From positions 1-6,000 of the IMG/VR virus record IMGVR_UViG_2778261058_000017: DNA of 6,000 bases; one strand, written 5' to 3'. Every line of letters begins with the position of its first letter. The stretch's first letter is position 1. Under the pieces are notes generated by a model, which was not told the DNA's origin, did not search any database, and worked only from the letters and a program-made list of their open reading frames with translations. A program made the translations under genes and the position numbers. This DNA comes from a virus (taxonomy: Duplodnaviria; Heunggongvirae; Uroviricota; Caudoviricetes). This document shows, in pieces, positions 1 to 6,000 of this stretch.

Positions 1-235
1 AACACCCTCAGACATTATCAATTTTAGATATAGTATGTCCTTGGCGTAGATTTCTCAAGAGTGTAAACAAGGGGGGAGACTTATGCTGGAAACTTGGGAA
101 AAAGCGACTGTTATTTTGTTCAGTAAACACCATGTAAACACACTGCCAACTGGCAACCATTCAATACTCACACCATCGAACGGACTTCAGCTGACCGCGA
201 CCTGTTTCTTCATTCTCGGATAGCGGCATTCATCT

Positions 236-823
236 TTATGCTGGTTTTGCTGGCCAAGTGATGTCAGGTGCTTTCGATGTATCGACCTCCTGAAGTGCTT
301 TAATGTACCAAATCCACGCAATCAGACTCGTCTTATCTTCGTCGCTAATGATTCCCAATTGCAGTTCAGTTGTCCAGAAACTGATCTTTTCCTTAGCTTT
401 TACCAATAGAATAGCTTTTTGCTTATCAGCCACTTCAACATCAGCTGCATACTTAGCATTTGGGTCTGATACCCACTTTTTCCCATCCCATTTCTGGAAC
501 GGATCAGAAGGAGCAATATTGGTATAGCCATTATTAATAGGACCAATATAGTCGATAGTATGAGGCATACCGTCAGTAGTTGAATAAACTGTCTTACCTC
601 GATGGTCTTCTTTCAAGACCCATCCTCCATTTTCGAATACAGCAACCTTTCCTGTTAGTTCATTACCCGGATCAATATCGGTAGAATTACCCGGCATACT
701 GACGCCAATATTAATATATTCGTCTGACCATCCTATATATTCAAAAGTTACTATATCGTAGTAATAGCAGCGGATTTCACCCGGTTCCGTTGCCAGTCCA
801 TTTTCATCAAAAACAGGTTTCAT
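236..823 (-). CDS. Phage tail fibre assembly protein (lambda Tfa family)
   Basis: 195-aa ORF. Translation carries blocks I recall from lambda Tfa: EDHRGKTVY, YQKWNG-type FQKWDGKKWV, and C-terminal VDTSKAPDITWPAKP (lambda: VDTSTAPDIEWP). Start ATG 821-823 overlaps the stop of the upstream tail-fibre ORF (TAATG), the usual tail fibre to tfa coupling. Confidence 0.88.
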   Translation of the reverse strand: MKPVFDENGLATEPGEIRCYYYDIVTFEYIGWSDEYINIGVSMPGNSTDIDPGNELTGKVAVFENGGWVLKEDHRGKTVYSTTDGMPHTIDYIGPINNGYTNIAPSDPFQKWDGKKWVSDPNAKYAADVEVADKQKAILLVKAKEKISFWTTELQLGIISDEDKTSLIAWIWYIKALQEVDTSKAPDITWPAKPA

Positions 824-1635
824 TATTTAGCCCTTACTAAAAAGTTAAATGTGATATTGCGGGGACGTGTTTCGTTGCCTCCAGGATTTTGGAATGCAGG
901 TAAAGCTCCCCCTATCGGCTGACTGATTCCGTTGGTATATAAAGGAGCTGCATTCGATATTGTACCAAACACTACATTGCTACCATTTCCGCTTGTCCCT
1001 AAAAATTTATGCTCATGCATTTTGAAGTCATCTGCTTGTGCAGAAAGTAAGGTTCGCCCTCTATCCACCCCGCGCCCATCATCCCAGATACGAATAAAAT
1101 CACCCCGTGCGTCAGGTAATGCTAGCGCCGGAAACACTTTCGCCAGCACAGGGTAATCAGTGGCAGAGAATTTCGCGCCGTTGAACTTCAAAAACACCAT
1201 ACTGGACCAACTGTCGATTACAGTATTTGGCATTGCGGCGGACGGCCAGAAGAACGGAACACCAATAGCTGGAGCACCTTCTCCCAAACCAAGATTTTCG
1301 AGAGCCGTTTTCACCGTGCCATCCGATTTGATATCACCAAACGGATTCTTGCGGCTTAACAGCAGCGCGCGAAGTGCGGTACCAAAGGCAGCACCTTTTA
1401 GCTCCGCAAGACGTTCTGACCAGTCATGCGCCAGCGCGTTGTCTTCCGCCGTGTAATACGCAGCACATTTGGCGTTATCACCGTCAGTGAACAGATCCAG
1501 AACAAACGGGCCAAACAGGGTGTTAATTCCCCAGAAAATGTTATCCGGCGTGCGCCACTGATCGCCCACTTCCTTCAGTTCATGGGCTGGTTTGTTCCGC
1601 AGTTCGACCAGCGCCTGGCAATATTTATTACTCAT
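823..1635 (-). CDS. Chimeric ORF: N-terminal fragment of phage Dam-like N6-adenine methyltransferase (about aa 1-85) fused in frame to a phage tail-fibre C-terminal domain
   Basis: Likely start is ATG 1633-1635 (MSNKYCQ...), overlapping the stop of the upstream gene as TAATG, with a GGGGG Shine-Dalgarno-like run upstream; the GTG at 1668 in the ORF track is probably an over-extension. N-terminus has the W-x-TP ... NAK ... Y-T-x-ED ... W pattern of phage Dam-family methyltransferases but breaks off at GAAFG, exactly where the catalytic NPPY motif would follow. The remainder ends in [19 protein letters not shown], resembling the conserved C-terminus of P2/Mu/lambdoid tail fibres, and is coupled to the downstream tfa. 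Family assignments are from recalled motifs. Confidence 0.72.
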
Positions 1636-2123
1636 TAAGCCCCCACGTAATTCCCTGACAGATACCACTCATCACCCGGTACAGCGCGCTTGCTGCTTTT
1701 CCGTAAACACCGCTCACGACGCGCAAGAAAATTGTTTCGCTCTGGCTGGGAGTGGCTTTCACGGAATGCCGCCATCCACACCGTTGCAGCACGACGGTAT
1801 AAGCCCCTGGACTCCAGTTCTTCCGCCTGGCGGGTCAGGCACAAAATCACCCGCGGGTCGTTAGTGCCGACATAGAAATTGCGCACAGGTCTGGTTTCAC
1901 GAACTGGTTGTGGTTCCGGCTCCTGCGCTCTCTCAGTCAGGCGCGGGAAATGTCTGCGTGTATCTCCTTCACAACGGTGAGCCACACGCCCACTCTGACG
2001 TAACTTGCTTGCTGACTGCAGAACGCGCTGCCGTGAGTAACCTGCAAAAGCATCCGCAATGTCTCCGGAAGTACAGCCCGGATGGGCTTCAATGAATTTC
2101 TGAACGTCATTCAAAAGACTCAT
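1635..2123 (-). CDS. PerC/ANR-like domain protein (putative transcriptional regulator), prophage-encoded
   Basis: Open frame of 162 aa from ATG 2121-2123 (or 164 aa from the GTG at 2127-2129, which overlaps the O-like stop as GTGA). The C-terminal segment [21 protein letters not shown]...ARRERCL matches the recalled PerC/Pch/ANR signature (E-x-R-G-L-W/Y-R-R-A-A ... R-x-x-C). The N-terminal 60 aa could be a small helical DNA-binding domain. Stop overlaps the next start (TAATG). Confidence 0.65.
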
Positions 2124-2125
2124 GC

Positions 2126-3067
2126 TCACCCCCTGAATCCTGCCGGGATCTGGCTGTAGTCCACGTTGTCGTAACTGGCTTTGAAGTACGGGTCCTCGCG
2201 TTTTTCGGTGTACGTGCTGACGGACGGCGATAAGCGCAGGGAAAGCTCATCCCATTTTTCCCGCAGCTTCGACGGGCTGAGCACGTTACGGCACCAGAAC
2301 GGATCGCGACTGACGCGGCTGTACATCTCGCAGATTTGTTTATGAGTACGACCATCCTGCACACACATCAGGCGAATTTCGTTTGCCCAGGCTGTCCAGT
2401 TCGGTTCTTTGGGACGAACCACCTCGCCGTCACATTCGGCGGCATGCTCGTACAGGGCGATGATTTTTTTCCAGAGCCACTGTGCGCAGGTCAAATCATC
2501 CTGCGTCCCCCACTGGCGCTTTTTAGGGCTGAATACAACCGCATCAGGATGGCGAGTTAAAAAATCCTGTTCAGCCTTCTGCGTGTCCGGTTGCGAAGCG
2601 TCCGGACGAGAAGTTTTTTTATCTGACGGATCATGTTTTGATTTTACTGACGGATCCCCGCCAGATTCTGACGGGTGAAAACCCGCTTTTTTGCCAGATT
2701 TCGACGCATCAAATTTTGACGGGTCAGATTTTGATGCGTCAGATTTTGACGGGTCAGAATCTGACAGTTGAGAAAAAGCCGCAGCCTGAAGCTTCGCAAC
2801 GTTAAGCTGATAAACATTCGACGCATTGCGGTTACCCTGGCGACGCGCCTTACGCGTTAACCAGCCTTCTGCTTCCAGCCGTGCGATAGCCGTTCTGACG
2901 GTACTCATCCCCGCGCCAATCTGGCGGGCAATGGTTTCAATTGATGGCCAGCACACACCTTCGTCATTACTGAAATCAGCCAGGCGTGCCATAATTGCCA
3001 CGCTGGATAATTTCATGCCTGACGCTGCGCAACCATCCCATACATAGCCGGTTAATTTAGTGCTCAT
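2126..3067 (-). CDS. Phage replication initiator (lambda O-like), N-terminal winged-HTH DNA-binding domain, carrying internal iterons
   Basis: 313-aa ORF with ATG at 3065-3067 preceded by GAGG. The N-terminal about 90 aa look like the HTH domain typical of phage/plasmid replication initiators (SSVAIMARLADFSNDEGVCWPSIETIARQIGAGMSTVRTAIARLEAEGWL). The central low-complexity segment SDSDPSKSDASKSDPSKFDASKS is encoded by tandem 15-bp DNA repeats, as in lambda where ori lies inside O. Confidence 0.82.
   Translation of the reverse strand: MSTKLTGYVWDGCAASGMKLSSVAIMARLADFSNDEGVCWPSIETIARQIGAGMSTVRTAIARLEAEGWLTRKARRQGNRNASNVYQLNVAKLQAAAFSQLSDSDPSKSDASKSDPSKFDASKSGKKAGFHPSESGGDPSVKSKHDPSDKKTSRPDASQPDTQKAEQDFLTRHPDAVVFSPKKRQWGTQDDLTCAQWLWKKIIALYEHAAECDGEVVRPKEPNWTAWANEIRLMCVQDGRTHKQICEMYSRVSRDPFWCRNVLSPSKLREKWDELSLRLSPSVSTYTEKREDPYFKASYDNVDYSQIPAGFRG
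2621..2770. repeat. Putative replication origin iterons: about 8 copies of a 15-bp repeat (consensus near AGATTTTGACGGGTC) inside the O-like gene
   Basis: Five contiguous 15-bp units at 2695-2709, 2710-2724, 2725-2739, 2740-2754 and 2755-2769, plus three dispersed copies at 2621-2632, 2641-2656 and 2662-2677, all sharing the core TGACGG (TGATGC/CGACGC variants). DNA-level identity exceeds what the encoded Ser/Asp/Lys linker would need. Confidence 0.6.
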
Positions 3068-3076
3068 GACCGACCT

Positions 3077-3415
3077 CTATTTCCCTGAATTTACGACGAA
3101 ACTGTTCGAGCGGACTGAAGCATTCATGCTCATAGCCTTCGCGGAGGTAGATAACCCGTTGTGTTTCCGGCTCCCAACGAATGACTCTGACGGGTACTCC
3201 GTAGTGATCTTTGAACCAGCGGTTAACTTGTCGCAAAGGACTGTCTCCTTTTGCCGGTTAAAATCACCCACAGCCCACTCTGCAAAGCTGTGGGTTACAA
3301 TTACCCTGCCACCTGGTACATTCACTGCATAGCAATACTCCACCTTCGCTTTTCCACCCGGTACAGGAAGCGCAATCAGTTGCGAGCGACGGTAGTGTGT
3401 TGTTAAACTATTCAT
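3077..3415 (-). CDS. Hypothetical early-region protein, probably disrupted by a frameshift (intact form about 119 aa ending at 3062)
   Basis: 112-aa ORF with ATG 3413-3415 overlapping the upstream stop (ATGA). A second minus-strand frame is open from 3257 to 3062 and encodes a protein-like sequence ([60 protein letters not shown]) whose stop overlaps the O-like start. The two frames can be joined by a 1-nt indel at the T4/A4 homopolymer at 3249-3252. No family recognised. Confidence 0.5.
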
Positions 3416-3963
3416 GCGTTAGTTTCTCCACAGTCACGACACGCCACGGCGCCCGGAGCTGCACACTCGCGGGCGTCATTACTTTCTGAAATGCAAAAAA
3501 TTTTGTAGACCAGTGCTGCATGCTCCTGCAGCTTCGAAATTGAGAGGTACAGCTCGTCGTTAATTGCTGTCTTCTCATGCGGTTCCACTACACCGTCTTC
3601 AATTGCTGAACGAATCTGTTTTGAATAACTGCCGATCTGTTCAATGACCTCCAGCAGGCGTTGGTTGATATCGGCGTTGTCCACATCCTCGACATCAGGA
3701 AGAGACACAAAGACGCCATTTGCAGACTGCGCCACAGCGTCAGCAATGAAGTGAGTTCCACCAGCACGTTGCAAAATCATTGCCCATCCCAGCGGGAAAA
3801 TCTGATCGCCATCGGCACGAAGGCGGTTAAATAATGCGTTCTCTGTTACATCCAGCCAGTCAGCAGCTTCAGCGTACCCCCCCGGCAACGCTGCGATAGT
3901 TTTTCTGACAGCTTTCACGTACCACTCAGGCTGTTTTTCTACTTTCCAGTGATGCTTACCCAC
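3412..3963 (-). CDS. Phage regulatory protein in the CII position (resembles the 186-CII/CP76-type family), putative
   Basis: 183-aa ORF with GTG start at 3961-3963 preceded by AGGAGG at 6-nt spacing; overlaps the Cro-like gene by 8 nt. The N-terminal region has an HTH-like segment ([22 protein letters not shown]). Position immediately downstream of cro and size both fit long CII-type regulators. Family call is from recalled features and is tentative. Confidence 0.6.
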
Positions 3964-4216
3964 GGTTCACCTCCTGTTCCTGTGGTTTAAACCCATTCTG
4001 GTTTTGGCTAGATTGAAAACGTGCCGGATAAAGAATCTGCATTTCGCTGACTTCACCCTTAAAAAAATTGGCTAAACGTTCTGCAAGCTCGATAGATGGA
4101 ATCTGCTCCAGCCTCTCAATACGACTCAACGTCGCTGGATTGACTTGAACACCCGCAGCAACATGCTGCAAAGTGAAACCATGCGCCTTACGCACATTTC
4201 GTAATGGTGATTGCAT
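3956..4216 (-). CDS. Cro-like HTH (XRE-family) transcriptional regulator
   Basis: 86-aa ORF with ATG 4214-4216 preceded by GGAGG (complement of 4222-4226). HTH segment FTLQHVAAGVQVNPATLSRIERLEQIPSIELAERLANFF. Divergent from the CI-like repressor across a 97-bp operator region. Confidence 0.8.
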   Translation of the reverse strand: MQSPLRNVRKAHGFTLQHVAAGVQVNPATLSRIERLEQIPSIELAERLANFFKGEVSEMQILYPARFQSSQNQNGFKPQEQEVNRG

Positions 4217-4313
4217 ATGTCCTCCAAATATTGCGCGTTATGCATGTTATTTCACGCAATTATTTTGCGCAAGTTGATTTGCTTATCACGCAATAAAGAA
4301 ATGTAATAAACGC
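4217..4313. promoter_or_regulatory. Divergent promoter/operator region (OR-like) between the Cro-like and CI-like genes
   Basis: Two similarly built 29-bp sites: TTGCGCG-N15-CACGCAA (4231-4259) and TTGCGCA-N15-CACGCAA (4265-4293), with half-sites 22 bp apart. Candidate leftward promoter: -35 TTGCGC (complement of 4267-4272) and -10 TAACAT (complement of 4244-4249). Candidate promoter for the repressor: -35 TTGCTT 4279-4284 and -10 TGTAAT 4302-4307, ending 6 nt before the ATG, and no Shine-Dalgarno sequence, suggesting a leaderless mRNA as for lambda cI from PRM. Confidence 0.65.
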
Positions 4314-5006
4314 ATGAACATAGGAAACCGAGTCAGACAACTTCGCCAAGCGAAGAACATGAAAATCGCCGATCTCGCTGAAGCAATAGGAGTAGATGCG
4401 GCGAACATCTCGCGCTTAGAAACGGGTAAGCAAAAACAATTTACCGAACAAACACTGAGTAATATTGCCAAGAGCTTAGGTGTTGATATTGCTGATCTCT
4501 TTACCTCTGCCCACAAAAGTAATACTGTATATAAAAACAGTAATAATGAGGATGTTGCGCAGGTGAAGGATGTGTTCCGTATTGAAATGCTGGATATCAG
4601 TGCCAGTGCGGGAAATGGCCTTATCCAGGGCGGTGATGTCATTGATGTGATTCATGCCATCGAATACAGAACTGATAATGCTGTATCAATGTTCGGCGGA
4701 CGACCAGCCAATCACATCAAAGTTATCAACGTTCGTGGGGACAGTATGTGTCCAACCATTGAGCCAGGAGATCTCATCTTCGTTGATGTCAGCATCAATC
4801 AGTTTGATGGTGATGGTATATATGTCTTTGGTTTTGATGACAAAATATACGTTAAAAGACTTCAAATGATTCCTGACAAACTGCTGGTGATTTCTGATAA
4901 CCAGATTTACCGTGAATGGGGAATTACTAGCGAAAACGAACACCGATTCATGGTCTTTGGAAAGGTCTTAATCAGTCAGTCGCAAACCCTTAAGAGACAT
5001 AATTAA
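4314..5006 (+). CDS. CI-like prophage repressor: N-terminal HTH (XRE) plus C-terminal LexA-type S24 peptidase autocleavage domain
   Basis: 230-aa ORF. N-terminal HTH (IADLAEAIGVDAANISRLETG). Putative Ala99-Gly100 cleavage site (SASAGNG). Ser144 in GDSM and Lys181 in YVKRL, with the Ser-Lys spacing of 37 that I recall for LexA. Confidence 0.92.
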   Translation: MNIGNRVRQLRQAKNMKIADLAEAIGVDAANISRLETGKQKQFTEQTLSNIAKSLGVDIADLFTSAHKSNTVYKNSNNEDVAQVKDVFRIEMLDISASAGNGLIQGGDVIDVIHAIEYRTDNAVSMFGGRPANHIKVINVRGDSMCPTIEPGDLIFVDVSINQFDGDGIYVFGFDDKIYVKRLQMIPDKLLVISDNQIYREWGITSENEHRFMVFGKVLISQSQTLKRHN

Positions 5007-5026
5007 CCTCAATATCCCATCCATCG

Positions 5027-5047
5027 GCCACCGAAAGGTGGCTTTTT
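5027..5047 (+). terminator. Rho-independent terminator downstream of the CI-like gene
   Basis: Perfect 6-bp stem GCCACC (5027-5032), loop GAAA, GGTGGC (5037-5042), followed by TTTTT (5043-5047), 20 nt after the repressor stop. Confidence 0.7.
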
Positions 5048-5063
5048 ATTACCTATAAAGTTA

Positions 5064-5097
5064 CATATCTCGCAAATATTACTTGCATATCTCGCAA
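5064..5097. promoter_or_regulatory. Putative secondary (OL-like) operator: direct repeat of CATATCTCGCAA, 22 bp apart
   Basis: Identical 12-mers at 5064-5075 and 5086-5097. The 10-bp core TATCTCGCAA matches the OR half-site TATCACGCAA (4284-4293) at 9 of 10 positions. A possible promoter overlaps (-35 TTGCAT 5083-5088, -10 TATCTT 5106-5111). Confidence 0.4.
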
Positions 5098-5260
5098 TTT
5101 AATTTTATCTTTTGTTCCAGACCAACTACAGGATTACAACAAAATCTGGTTGCAACACGGTGCATGTGTCGTAAGCAGTCAGTAAATGTCAAAAACGAAC
5201 AGGCAGGACGCCCACGAAGTAGCCGCCTGGGGCATATGAAGTCTAGGGTGATTCGTTAGC

Positions 5261-5286
5261 AACAAAAAAGCGCCCTACAGGACGCT
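5261..5286 (-). terminator. Hairpin plus T-run: candidate intrinsic terminator on the minus strand (alternatively a boxB-like hairpin of a plus-strand antitermination site)
   Basis: Stem AGCGCCC (5269-5275), loop TACA, GGACGCT (5280-5286), with one mismatch. On the minus strand it is followed by TTTTTTGTT (complement of 5261-5269). On the plus strand it lies 2 nt upstream of the boxA-like element. Confidence 0.4.
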
Positions 5287-5288
5287 TA

Positions 5289-5301
5289 GCTCTTTAACAA
5301 T
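5289..5301 (+). promoter_or_regulatory. boxA-like element GCTCTTTAACAAT (NusB/NusE-binding type antitermination signal)
   Basis: 13-nt run matching the recalled E. coli rrn leader boxA (TGCTCTTTAACAATTTATCA) and the boxA consensus GCTCTT(T)A. It sits in the plus-strand leader about 45 nt upstream of the small ORF at 5346, i.e. in the position of nutL relative to cI in lambda. Confidence 0.5.
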
Positions 5302-5345
5302 CTGGTCCCCATCAACAAGTAACTGATAACTTGAGGAGGTGTGAA

Positions 5346-5552
5346 ATGCACAAAACAGAACCCAAAATCGTCGCGCCCGGATACACAAATGAGGAAATTT
5401 ACGAGTGGATGGCAAAGAAGCTGGCAGCTATAAACCAGCTTCGTGAAGTGCTGTCTTATCGACAGGAAACAATAGACTCCTTAAAAAAACTGGATCAGGA
5501 AATCACGGTTTTATCACAGGATGTTACTTTAGATATTGTGCAGACAAATTAG
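5346..5552 (+). CDS. Small hypothetical protein (68 aa), predicted helical; first gene downstream of the cI-distal operator/boxA leader
   Basis: ATG at 5346 preceded by a strong GAGGAGG (5333-5339) at 6-nt spacing; the TTG at 5331 in the ORF track is unlikely to be the start. Not Arg-rich, so not an N-like antiterminator. Its 3' end overlaps the convergent minus-strand gene by 29 nt. Confidence 0.55.
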   Translation: MHKTEPKIVAPGYTNEEIYEWMAKKLAAINQLREVLSYRQETIDSLKKLDQEITVLSQDVTLDIVQTN

Positions 5553-6000
5553 GATCCCATTCATTTTCGTCAAAATCATCAAAGTGATGAATTTGTGATC
5601 TCCAGTCTCGATAATCTAAAAATTTCTGGGCGGTTACGCTTATTTTATCAAGTGTGAGTTCATCCTGAATTGAAAGAAGAAGTTCATCAAATTTCATCTC
5701 ATTAATCTGTTTTGGCATCCAGTGATGCTTCATCAGAATAAGGTGAACCAGAGCCTTTTTCCCATTCAACTGATTATAGGGAGTGCCGAATTTCTTCCGG
5801 TGCTCATGTAAGACAAGGTCCAGAAGAGTAAGTAATGTTGCCCTTGATTCCACTTTGCTTATTTCGACTGATGACACTACCCCACTGATTTCAATGCCCC
5901 GATACTTTCCAACATTTTCACAGTGGGATTTGTACAGCGTGTATGTTAGCGCCAGTGATATAAGACGGTAATTCACCATTTGGATTGTCCGCTCCACCCA
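5524..6000 (-). CDS. Hypothetical protein, AT-rich accessory (moron-like) gene; 5' end probably beyond the window
   Basis: Open frame from the window edge to the TAA stop at 5524-5526, at least 158 codons. The GTG at 5997 and the ATG at 5977-5979 are possible but unconvincing starts. Lower GC than the replication genes, by eye. Oriented against the putative early-left transcript. No family recognised. Confidence 0.6.
   Translation of the reverse strand, partial: WVERTIQMVNYRLISLALTYTLYKSHCENVGKYRGIEISGVVSSVEISKVESRATLLTLLDLVLHEHRKKFGTPYNQLNGKKALVHLILMKHHWMPKQINEMKFDELLLSIQDELTLDKISVTAQKFLDYRDWRSQIHHFDDFDENEWDPNLSAQYLK

Follow-up and report, generated by a model that had tools for sequence, protein, structure and literature searches.

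A methyltransferase-tail-fibre fusion gene probably left by a large internal deletion in an SfII-like Escherichia coli prophage

The window analysed here, a stretch of 6,000 nucleotides of viral DNA (positions 1 to 6,000 of IMG/VR record IMGVR_UViG_2778261058_000017), carries an open reading frame in which the N-terminal part of a phage N6-adenine methyltransferase is continued by the C-terminal part of a tail-fibre protein (Table 1). This ORF very probably arose through a large internal deletion in a temperate, SfII-like E. coli prophage situated beside the pao genes. The fusion is an ordinary scar of prophage decay, although an independent event in another prophage struck the same breakpoint in the tail-fibre gene. 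Taken alone, the locus has little weight; it provides a clean, base-resolved example of a temperate phage on its way to a cryptic remnant.

Table 1. Features of the window that bear on the fusion gene (positions in the window)
Feature	Position	Strand	Remarks
Tail-fibre assembly (chaperone) gene tfa	236..823	-	Pfam Caudo_TAP, 3.5e-28; start overlaps fusion stop (TAATG)
Chimeric ORF, 270 aa	823..1635	-	Methyltransferase aa 1-85 plus tail-fibre aa 68-252, in frame; ATG at 1635
3' part of 252-aa tail-fibre gene, codons 68-252	823..1381	-	Constant linker, crossover site and variable receptor-binding part
Single Pin-type crossover (pix-like) site, TTCTCCCAAACCAAGATTTTCGAGAG	1278..1303		Within tail-fibre part; match to inverted-repeat arms beside pinE
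Deletion junction, TA dinucleotide common to both parents (2-bp microhomology)	1380..1381		From direct alignment
5' stub of phage N6-adenine methyltransferase gene	1380..1635	-	nt 1-256 of 654; ends ...AAFG; NPPY onward missing
yfdN-like PerC-family gene	1635..2129	-	Stop overlaps fusion ATG (TAATG)
Rest of early-right operon: cro-like, CII/YmfL-like, 112-aa ORF, DUF4222, O-like replication gene	2126..4216	-	
CI-like repressor, HTH and S24 LexA-like peptidase domains	4314..5006	+	Divergent from operon; 98.3% identity to SfII immunity region

Composition of the fusion gene and position of the junction

The two halves of the gene were matched separately, and each flank showed about 99-100% nucleotide identity to a different intact gene: nt 1-256 of the fusion gene differ from an intact phage N6-adenine methyltransferase gene at 2 of 256 positions, and nt 255-813 align without a mismatch to the intact 252-aa tail-fibre gene of E. 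coli D9. The methyltransferase-like and fibre-like stretches share a single TA, and the joined sequence in the gene sense reads TTTGGTA/CCGCAC (the slash marks the joint). The earlier note had placed the switch at about nt 1380 (plus or minus 30), right where the NPPY motif should begin; alignment with the intact relatives defined both endpoints, brought the switch to 1380-1381, and bore out its relation to the motif, as the intact gene reads ...KGAAFG-NPPYSRAS... and the fusion breaks exactly before motif IV. The catalytic motif IV, (N/D)PPY, is accordingly absent from the fusion.

On the tail-fibre side, window positions 1-1381 are 100% identical to E. coli D9, where the counterpart consists of the 3' two thirds of the intact tail-fibre gene and tfa, lying behind ymfQ and the baseplate genes at the thrW-pao locus. 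On the other side, window positions 1380-5940 are 99% identical to prophages with an intact 217-aa methyltransferase gene followed by a full late region. Since the flanks match two different genes at 99-100% identity, and intact relatives have these genes 24.5 kb from each other, the fusion is not due to chance.

The predicted product is identical to NCBI WP_244568275.1, annotated by PGAP as a methyltransferase ('phage N-6-adenine-methyltransferase'). This name results from a partial N-terminal match barely above the TIGR01712 cut-off (profile positions 1-63 of 165, 99.4 bits; cut-off, 97.05), whereas the methyltransferase of an intact relative covers positions 1-165 of 165 with 255.6 bits. 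In Pfam, Dam (PF05869) was matched only at aa 18-75 of the 270-aa ORF (profile positions 3-60 of 169), together with a weak tail Collar match at aa 147-181, and neither of the two N6-adenine methyltransferase profiles (PF05869, TIGR01712) was matched in full. With neither motif IV nor the C-terminal two thirds, the chimera would have no methyltransferase activity, and its annotation is a trap. The earlier note had reasoned that an end-to-end alignment with a single protein family would speak for a natural domain architecture. Among the 120 matches listed of 7,930, query coverage was 84% at most, those at 72-84% were tail-fibre proteins, and no full-length homologue of the 270-aa fusion was present.

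The ORF was said to be in frame and translationally coupled on both sides, and this reading held: TAATG stop/start overlaps link the yfdN-like gene to the fusion (1637-1633) and the fusion to tfa (825-821). The O-like replication gene contains iterons (2695-2758), and no terminator-like site was detected on the minus strand from 4180 to 236 by a simple scan. From this arrangement, the early-right operon (2126..4216) would carry the fusion. The CI-like LexA-type repressor would keep this operon off in the lysogen, and the chimera would presumably be made only on derepression.

Extent of the deletion and state of the prophage

In phage SfII, dam (32072-32725) and the tail-fibre gene (16977-17627) are separate genes, and the same arrangement is found in E. 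coli VTB97584v. The interval between the two endpoints measures 24,541 bp in the intact prophage of VTB97584v and 26,326 bp in SfII, which is about 60% of the phage, so that the large deletion proposed in the earlier note is given a size. The interval contains genes for a LexA-family protein, RusA, KilA-N, DUF968, Q, lysis, HNH and terminase, followed by portal, protease, capsid, head-tail joining, sheath, tube, tape measure and baseplate; the first 67 codons of the tail-fibre gene were also lost. The late regulator, lysis, packaging, head and tail genes that were expected between the two halves are thus seen in the intact relatives and are absent from the source contig.

The source contig (GCA_002229985.1, NLNZ01000027.1; 0 mismatches to the window) has the order rep - yfdN - fusion - tfa - acetyltransferase - MaoC - 517-aa gene - ... 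- LysR' - paoD - paoC. Both of its prophage flanks are collinear with the intact phage, the intervening genes are missing, and no late gene is present on it, as befits the defective prophage that had been proposed. Since the 3' half of the methyltransferase gene was not found downstream on this contig, the event was a deletion and not an insertion. As no packaging, head or tail genes are present on the contig, particle formation would presumably be impossible. The earlier description of the genome as lambdoid is appropriate for the early genes; as a whole, the element is an SfII/SfV-type mosaic with a Mu-like contractile tail and not a classical lambda.

The prophage is embedded in the chromosome: its right arm is followed by LysR', paoD and paoC, and D9 has the same arrangement. 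In D9, thrW and a truncated integrase gene are situated at the opposite prophage end. The source contig covers the prophage without its integrase end; its position beside pao is that of thrW-integrated relatives, and integration at thrW is probable from D9 and the pao flank. The junction was carried by an NCBI draft and by the Logan assembly of SRR3989737, which are 100% identical over 11.3 kb; it is known from one isolate lineage only, and independent confirmation is weak. Exact-pattern scans for the junction gave no match in GTDB representative genomes, JGI metagenomes or IMG/VR, and it was present in none of the complete E. coli genomes, 360 of which have a joint of the K-12 type.

Comparison with related elements

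Shigella phage SfII (NC_021857 / KC736978; serotype-converting and temperate; genome paper, PMC3772137) has 98.3% nucleotide identity to window positions 1380-5257, a range that spans cI, cro, cII, the O-like gene, the yfdN-like gene and dam. The methyltransferase N-terminus is identical in SfII and the window, and the two agree in gene order, O-antigen-modifying cargo following tfa in both. SfII differs in being complete (41,475 bp) and retaining the 26,326 bp absent from the window prophage, in a fibre tip that diverges past the pix site, and in its cargo, which is gtrABII and an acyltransferase in SfII and a PglD-like acetyltransferase, a MaoC-like dehydratase and a 517-aa protein in the window prophage.

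In CPS-53/KplE1 of E. coli K-12, the same two gene families are joined as yfdM'-'yfdL by loss of the whole late region, in the order tfa - 'tail fibre - methyltransferase' - yfdN - O-like gene. KplE1 has been described as a 10.2-kb defective prophage at argW (PMC2951348), and K-12 yfdM is listed in RefSeq as a methyltransferase pseudogene, 'missing C-terminus'. However, the K-12 joint connects methyltransferase nt 267 to fibre T22 through the microhomology TAC, whereas the window joint connects nt 256 to T68 through TA; the former is out of frame and keeps the NPPY codons, and the latter is in frame and has lost them. The elements also differ in locus (argW in K-12, the pao side in the window prophage), in the variable fibre tip past the pix site, and in the immunity region, which is lost in K-12 and complete in the window. 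With breakpoints 11 nt and about 137 nt apart, and with a different locus and different alleles, the window junction does not appear to be the same event by descent as yfdM'-'yfdL.

Origin of the fusion and alternative explanations

Illegitimate recombination at the 2-bp microhomology TA would have joined methyltransferase nt 256 to fibre nt ~200-202 and removed approximately 24.5 kb (26.3 kb in SfII coordinates). By luck the joint is in frame. The former TAATG overlaps are preserved, on the upstream side with yfdN and on the downstream side with tfa, and the fibre tip and the chaperone gene have come to lie last in the early-right operon (cro, cII, O, yfdN). Scars of the same kind are found in relatives, namely K-12 yfdM'-'yfdL, four more in-frame fusions to the tail-fibre gene and a TerL'-'ymfQ joint. 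An origin in steps, in which a first deletion left longer parts of the two genes and a second, small one across its scar gave the present joint, is unlikely for this locus. Stepwise decay does occur, because prfC-locus strains have prophages with identical right arms and different, partly nested junctions. A variant would start from a K-12 type yfdM'-'yfdL junction: K-12 retains 11 nt more of the methyltransferase gene and ~137 nt more of the fibre gene, and removal of these 148 bp would also bring its joint in frame. This 148-bp deletion was nevertheless ruled out by the locus (argW versus beside pao) and the flanking alleles. Relative to the window, the K-12 stub has 8/256 mismatches, compared with 2/256 for the intact methyltransferase gene, the fibre constant region has 8/104 in K-12, 0/104 in D9 and 2/104 in SfII, and the K-12 type joint occurs together with this right arm in no complete E. 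coli genome. Steps within the pao-side prophage itself are possible and would be indistinguishable from a single step.

That the ORF encodes a genuine two-domain protein under selection, with a methyltransferase N-domain and a receptor-binding tip serving, for example, early expression of the fibre tip and Tfa, is very improbable. The intact frame and the coupling on both sides would suit such a protein, as would the in-frame state of the comparable fusions obtained from protein clusters and a phenotype given in a preprint for the comparable K-12 stub YfdM (10.1101/413146); but in-frame joints are expected from a search by protein clusters, and the K-12 joint is itself out of frame. Moreover, no full-length homologue was found outside one isolate lineage among the matches listed, the halves are near-identical to separate intact genes with the switch at one dinucleotide, and both the catalytic motif and the fibre N-terminus are absent. 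Because these two parts are missing, the fusion has most likely become a neutral and inert leftover of prophage decay, although, in view of the preprint phenotype, its inertness is something that we only infer. An assembly chimera is hardly credible: the joint is present only in draft or short-read assemblies, maybe from one isolate, but it was returned identically by two assembly pipelines, the parents share only 2 bp at the joint, far under any assembler overlap, and the contig keeps its collinearity on both sides, with D9 over 9.4 kb and with intact prophages over 4.6 kb.

Recurrent endpoints in the tail-fibre gene

Six independent fusions, found via protein clusters by an approach that favours in-frame events in this stretch, end within the first ~250 nt of the tail-fibre gene. 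Three of them end at T22 (K-12 methyltransferase, capsid and portal; microhomologies TAC, TTAC and TACC), and two end on the same TA at T68, namely the window fusion and a TerL fusion from a different prophage clade with a different fibre allele. The prophages with T22 and T68 fusions occupy three chromosomal loci, and the left partners are the methyltransferase, terminase, portal and capsid genes. Both sites read TTACC, and the left partners of both T68 fusions read GGTA/AYCC. The clustering has P ~8e-5 under a uniform null without microhomology content. Recurrence of the same fibre breakpoint in an unrelated event is not predicted by plain random illegitimate recombination.

It is a rather doubtful proposition that the 5' end of the fibre gene holds two preferred deletion endpoints (TTACC; codons T22 and T68), used independently at least five times. 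Equally questionable is the corresponding account of the window joint, in which an activity that prefers certain sites would determine the breakpoint, with a nuclease, topoisomerase or recombinase at TTACC in the fibre 5' region as candidates, and microhomology joining would follow. The concentration of the six endpoints, the motifs common to the sites and their partners, and the P value argue for it, but the search was biased to in-frame events and the null model ignores microhomology content. Furthermore, neither site is like the Pin crossover site, the real pix site lying intact 77 nt downstream; no stable hairpin was found at T22 or T68 (z +0.8 and +1.0); the microhomology is 2-4 bp, as in ordinary illegitimate recombination; and no candidate enzyme was found.

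Several more specific explanations were rejected. A mobile 5-kb 'right arm' inserting at GGTAAYCC targets would leave the 3' remainder of the methyltransferase or TerL gene after the arm, and none was found. Derivation of the window junction from the TerL::T68 junction, or the reverse, is opposed by different right-arm haplotype clades, joint-adjacent alleles and loci. A natural fibre variant without aa 25-67, which would give GGTA/CC joints via 4-5 bp of homology, was not found among the homologues listed or in IMG/VR. By eye, IS608-type TTAC cleavage does not fit, as the T68 joints need the C from the fibre side, unlike cleavage after TTAC; for RusA-type cleavage 5' of CC, also compared by eye, the CC that follows the joint is what ACC codons would give anyway. 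Pin-mediated recombination was discarded from the 77-nt distance between the junction and the intact pix site and from the dissimilarity of T22 and T68 to a pix half-site (partly by eye).

The repeated use of two fibre-gene endpoints hints at non-random decay. If the endpoints are truly preferred, a site-preferring break-and-join activity of host or phage origin might act there, or alternatively selection might favour retention of the fibre tip, of Tfa and of the cargo that modifies the O antigen, with loss of the virion genes; with either cause, decay of the SfII-like prophage family would be partly directed and not random. Closely related E. coli strains with the same prophage arm and different scars form a natural series for the tempo and mechanism of prophage decay.

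Tail-fibre part and crossover site

As in fibres of the e14 StfE / Mu S / SfII gp23 type, the tail-fibre part has a constant linker that contains a crossover site, followed by a variable tip, and tfa lies directly downstream. The N-terminal part (aa 1-67), which follows ymfQ and the baseplate genes in the intact type, is deleted, and the fusion begins at fibre T68. Without these 67 aa, and with all virion genes gone, the chimera could probably not mount on a baseplate. Compared with the Pin/Gin/Cin invertible fibre segments (e14, Mu, P1), the source contig has one site only and lacks an inverted partner (none in window 1-1700), a second tip/tfa set and an invertase gene; the deletion joint, upstream of the crossover site, is unrelated to it. 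In a close relative, an invertible segment beside pinE is flanked by inverted-repeat arms, and the crossover site matches these arms. It is precisely here that variable tips are exchanged, as in the Pin/Gin/Cin type, and K-12 homology ends exactly at 1278. Residues 38-130 of the tail-fibre part match the T4 gp37 fibre tip (2xgf; E 9e-7).

Structure of the fusion gene

The window was matched to an E. coli draft contig (GCA_002229985.1, NLNZ01000027.1) with 0 mismatches, and its genes are listed in the table below. The product of the fusion ORF is WP_244568275.1 at NCBI, recorded as "phage N-6-adenine-methyltransferase". By DNA alignment, nt 1-256 of the ORF differed at 2 positions from the intact gene for a 217-aa phage methyltransferase, nt 255-813 were aligned with the intact 252-aa tail-fibre gene of E. 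coli D9 with 0 mismatches, and the two parent matches overlapped by one TA. The intact enzyme reads ...KGAAFG-NPPYSRAS..., and the fusion breaks exactly at catalytic motif IV, its tail-fibre side beginning at residue T68. The Pfam Dam match (PF05869) was limited to fusion residues 18-75 (profile positions 3-60 of 169), and a weak Pfam tail Collar match was found at residues 147-181. The yfdN-like stop overlaps the fusion ATG, and the fusion stop overlaps the tfa ATG, both as TAATG. The two genes were joined in frame by an illegitimate, microhomology-level (2 bp) deletion; the earlier note had guessed a breakpoint at the start of NPPY and an in-frame joint coupled on both sides, and both were borne out, the breakpoint by alignment with intact relatives, which the note had proposed for defining the endpoints.

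Genes and sites in the window
Feature	Position	Strand	Remark
CI-like repressor gene	4314-5006	+	Divergent from minus-strand ORFs; S24 autocleavage domain
cI-cro intergenic region	4217-4313
cro-like HTH gene	3956-4216	-
CII/YmfL-like gene	3412-3963	-
112-aa ORF	3077-3415	-
DUF4222 ORF	3057-3236	-
O-like replication gene	2126-3067	-
Direct repeats	2695-2758		Inside O-like replication gene
PerC/YfdN-like gene	1635-2129	-
Fusion ORF, 270 aa	823-1635	-
TA at the joint	1380-1381
Pin-type crossover site	1278-1303		Inside retained fibre part
Tail-fibre assembly gene tfa	236-823	-

The direct repeats (about four copies of a 15-nt unit, CAGATTTTGACGGGT) encode a SDSDPSKSDASKSDPSKFDASK stretch and resemble origin iterons such as those in lambda O. 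Repeated TCACGCAAT and TTGCGCAA-like elements in the cI-cro intergenic region look like operators; no consensus sigma-70 promoter was found there by simple scan.

Protein search and distribution

A single natural family, rather than a fusion, would be expected to give end-to-end matches. A search of 5.8 billion proteins gave 7,930 hits, and no end-to-end homologue was present among the best 120, in which query coverage was 84% or less; among the matches listed, those with 72-84% coverage were tail-fibre proteins, with alignments that run on into the stub with low identity. TIGR01712 was matched at positions 1-63 of 165 with 99.4 bits, just over the cut-off of 97.05, and the truncated fusion therefore passes as an equivalog. 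The exact 270-aa protein was found only in the NCBI draft and in the Logan assembly of SRR3989737, which match at 100% identity along 11.3 kb and probably share one source isolate. The joint was absent from complete E. coli genomes, GTDB representative genomes, JGI metagenomes and IMG/VR. Dozens of 252-254-aa tail-fibre proteins homologous to window 823-1381 are named "integrase [Escherichia coli]" in NCBI/UniRef, which looks like a propagated misannotation.

Extent of the deletion and surroundings of the prophage

Numerous E. coli prophages align with window 1380-5940 with an identity of about 99%; in these the methyltransferase gene is complete and is followed by genes for a LexA-family protein, RusA, KilA-N, DUF968, Q, holin/lysozyme/spanin, HNH, TerS, TerL, portal, protease, capsid, connectors, sheath, tube, tape measure, DNA-circularisation protein, baseplate proteins and YmfQ, and then by the tail fibre and tfa. 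The breakpoints are 24,541 bp apart in strain VTB97584v, a distance that takes in the late regulator, lysis, packaging, head and tail genes whose loss had been proposed, and 26,326 bp apart in the 41,475-bp genome of SfII (PMC3772137), the closest sequenced phage (98.3% identity over window 1380-5257). Beyond the fusion, the source contig carries tfa, genes for a PglD-like acetyltransferase and a MaoC-like dehydratase, a 517-aa gene, two small genes, a LysR pseudogene and paoD/paoC; late genes are missing from its gene list, and the 3' part of the methyltransferase gene was not found downstream of the fusion. The defective-prophage reading is upheld, and the earlier note was correct overall in both observation and interpretation.

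At the thrW-pao locus of E. coli D9 the right arm is 100% identical over 1,381 nt and the fibre gene is intact, while the early region has been lost through an IS3-bounded deletion; with the same right arm and different losses, D9 and the source strain thus carry one kind of prophage in two different states of decay. The cargo after tfa (contig positions 6003-9461, downstream of window position 1) comprises the acetyltransferase (PglD/NeuD-like), dehydratase and 517-aa genes, the last without a Pfam match. It sits where SfII and CPS-53 have the gtrABC O-antigen glucosylation genes, and may represent a different module for modifying surface polysaccharide.

Predicted expression and function

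The fusion and tfa now close the early-right operon, which the CI-like S24 repressor gene faces, and a simple scan of the minus strand from 4180 to 236 found no terminator-like site; transcription of the chimera would be expected only on derepression. The chimera is predicted to be unable to methylate DNA, because only TIGR01712 positions 1-63 of 165 remain and NPPY is gone, and it would be unable to mount on a baseplate, because the first 67 fibre residues and all virion genes are gone. The retained fibre part resembles a receptor-binding tip, its residues 38-130 matching the T4 gp37 tip (2xgf, E 9e-7). It contains one Pin-type crossover site (TTCTCCCAAACCAAGATTTTCGAGAG), which matches the inverted repeats around an invertible segment beside pinE in a relative. 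Homology to the K-12 yfdL and SfII fibres ends exactly at this site, so the variable tip and tfa were swapped there at some time. A search of window 1-1700 gave no inverted partner site, and the source contig has no invertase gene.

Comparison with the K-12 prophage CPS-53/KplE1

KplE1 is a 10.2-kb defective prophage at argW of E. coli K-12 (PMC2951348), with the same gene order as the window: tfa, 'yfdL (fibre), yfdM' (methyltransferase "missing C-terminus"), yfdN and a truncated O-like gene. Its joint is out of frame, keeps NPPY and retains 148 bp more than the window joint. Derivation of the window joint from the K-12 joint by a secondary 148-bp deletion is argued against by locus, alleles, immunity region and linkage. 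The two prophages sit at different loci; the K-12 stub has 8/256 mismatches to the window, as against 2/256 for the intact methyltransferase gene, and the constant region has 8/104 in K-12, 0/104 in D9 and 2/104 in SfII. The immunity region is lost in K-12 and complete in the window, and the K-12 joint, present in 360 complete genomes, was never linked to the window's right arm. The fusion is a deletion scar in a cryptic prophage, of a known kind with an annotated parallel in K-12, and is by itself of low interest.

According to a preprint that treats the K-12 stub YfdM as a Dam methylase (10.1101/413146), propagation of the T1-like phage SW1 requires this stub. YfdM (K-12 sequence L001, 6240-6506) consists of the first 89 residues of the 217-residue enzyme and two more encoded across the joint, and ends just after NPPY, so the Dam-methylase reading needs checking. 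The reported phenotype is a caveat on calling the fusion "inert".

Recurrent endpoints in the tail-fibre gene

Proteins clustered with the window fibre allele include four more in-frame fusions (P0001, P0125, P0127 and P0134), listed below with the window and K-12 joints.

Fusions ending in the tail-fibre gene
Fusion	Left partner	Fibre residue	Microhomology	Locus or clade
This window	methyltransferase nt 256	T68	TA	pao side (thrW clade)
P0001	TerL	T68	TA	prfC
K-12 yfdM'-'yfdL	methyltransferase nt 267	T22	TAC	argW
P0127	capsid	T22	TTAC	prfC
P0125	portal aa 18	T22	TACC	prfC
P0134	TerL aa 58	D84	TGA	thrW clade by SNPs

Besides window 1380-1381, endpoint sites were noted at 10352-10357 of the relative L008, in the relatives L011, L014 and L015, and at about 6240-6300 of L001. 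Six independent fusions have their endpoints within the first 253 nt of the tail-fibre gene, three of them at T22 (K-12 included, within 1-2 nt) and two at the same TA at T68. The TerL::T68 joint lies in a different right-arm haplotype clade from the window joint, with that clade's own allele directly adjoining it, and at a different chromosomal locus, and so arose independently. In both T68 fusions the left partner reads GGTA|AYCC, across Gly-Asn-Pro codons, and the T22 and T68 sites both read TTACC. Under a uniform null the clustering gave P ~8e-5, a rough value, since this null ignores microhomology content and the fusions were found in a way favouring in-frame events. No hairpin was found at T22 or T68, no resemblance of these sites to half-sites of the Pin-type crossover site, and no fibre variant supplying longer homology at the joints. 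The recurrence is a lead rather than a finding, and the only part that might surprise a specialist.

The right arms (4.95 kb) of the three prfC-locus variants are identical, and strains of this lineage with identical right arms show three deletion states (portal::T22, capsid::T22 and TerL::T68), so decay in the prfC lineage has been recent and repeated. These prophages at yjjG-prfC (L008, L011 and L014) form a second lineage that shares the 5-kb right arm; upstream in L008 and L011 lies a P4-type integrase gene and/or a 1,275-aa SIR2_2 gene. Other scars were found in LH10-b-1 at the thrW locus (L010, 9281), where TerL (about nt 798) is joined to the 3' end of ymfQ, in ML35, where ymfQ' adjoins replication protein P, and in EC05, where a DNA-circularisation gene fragment adjoins ymfQ.
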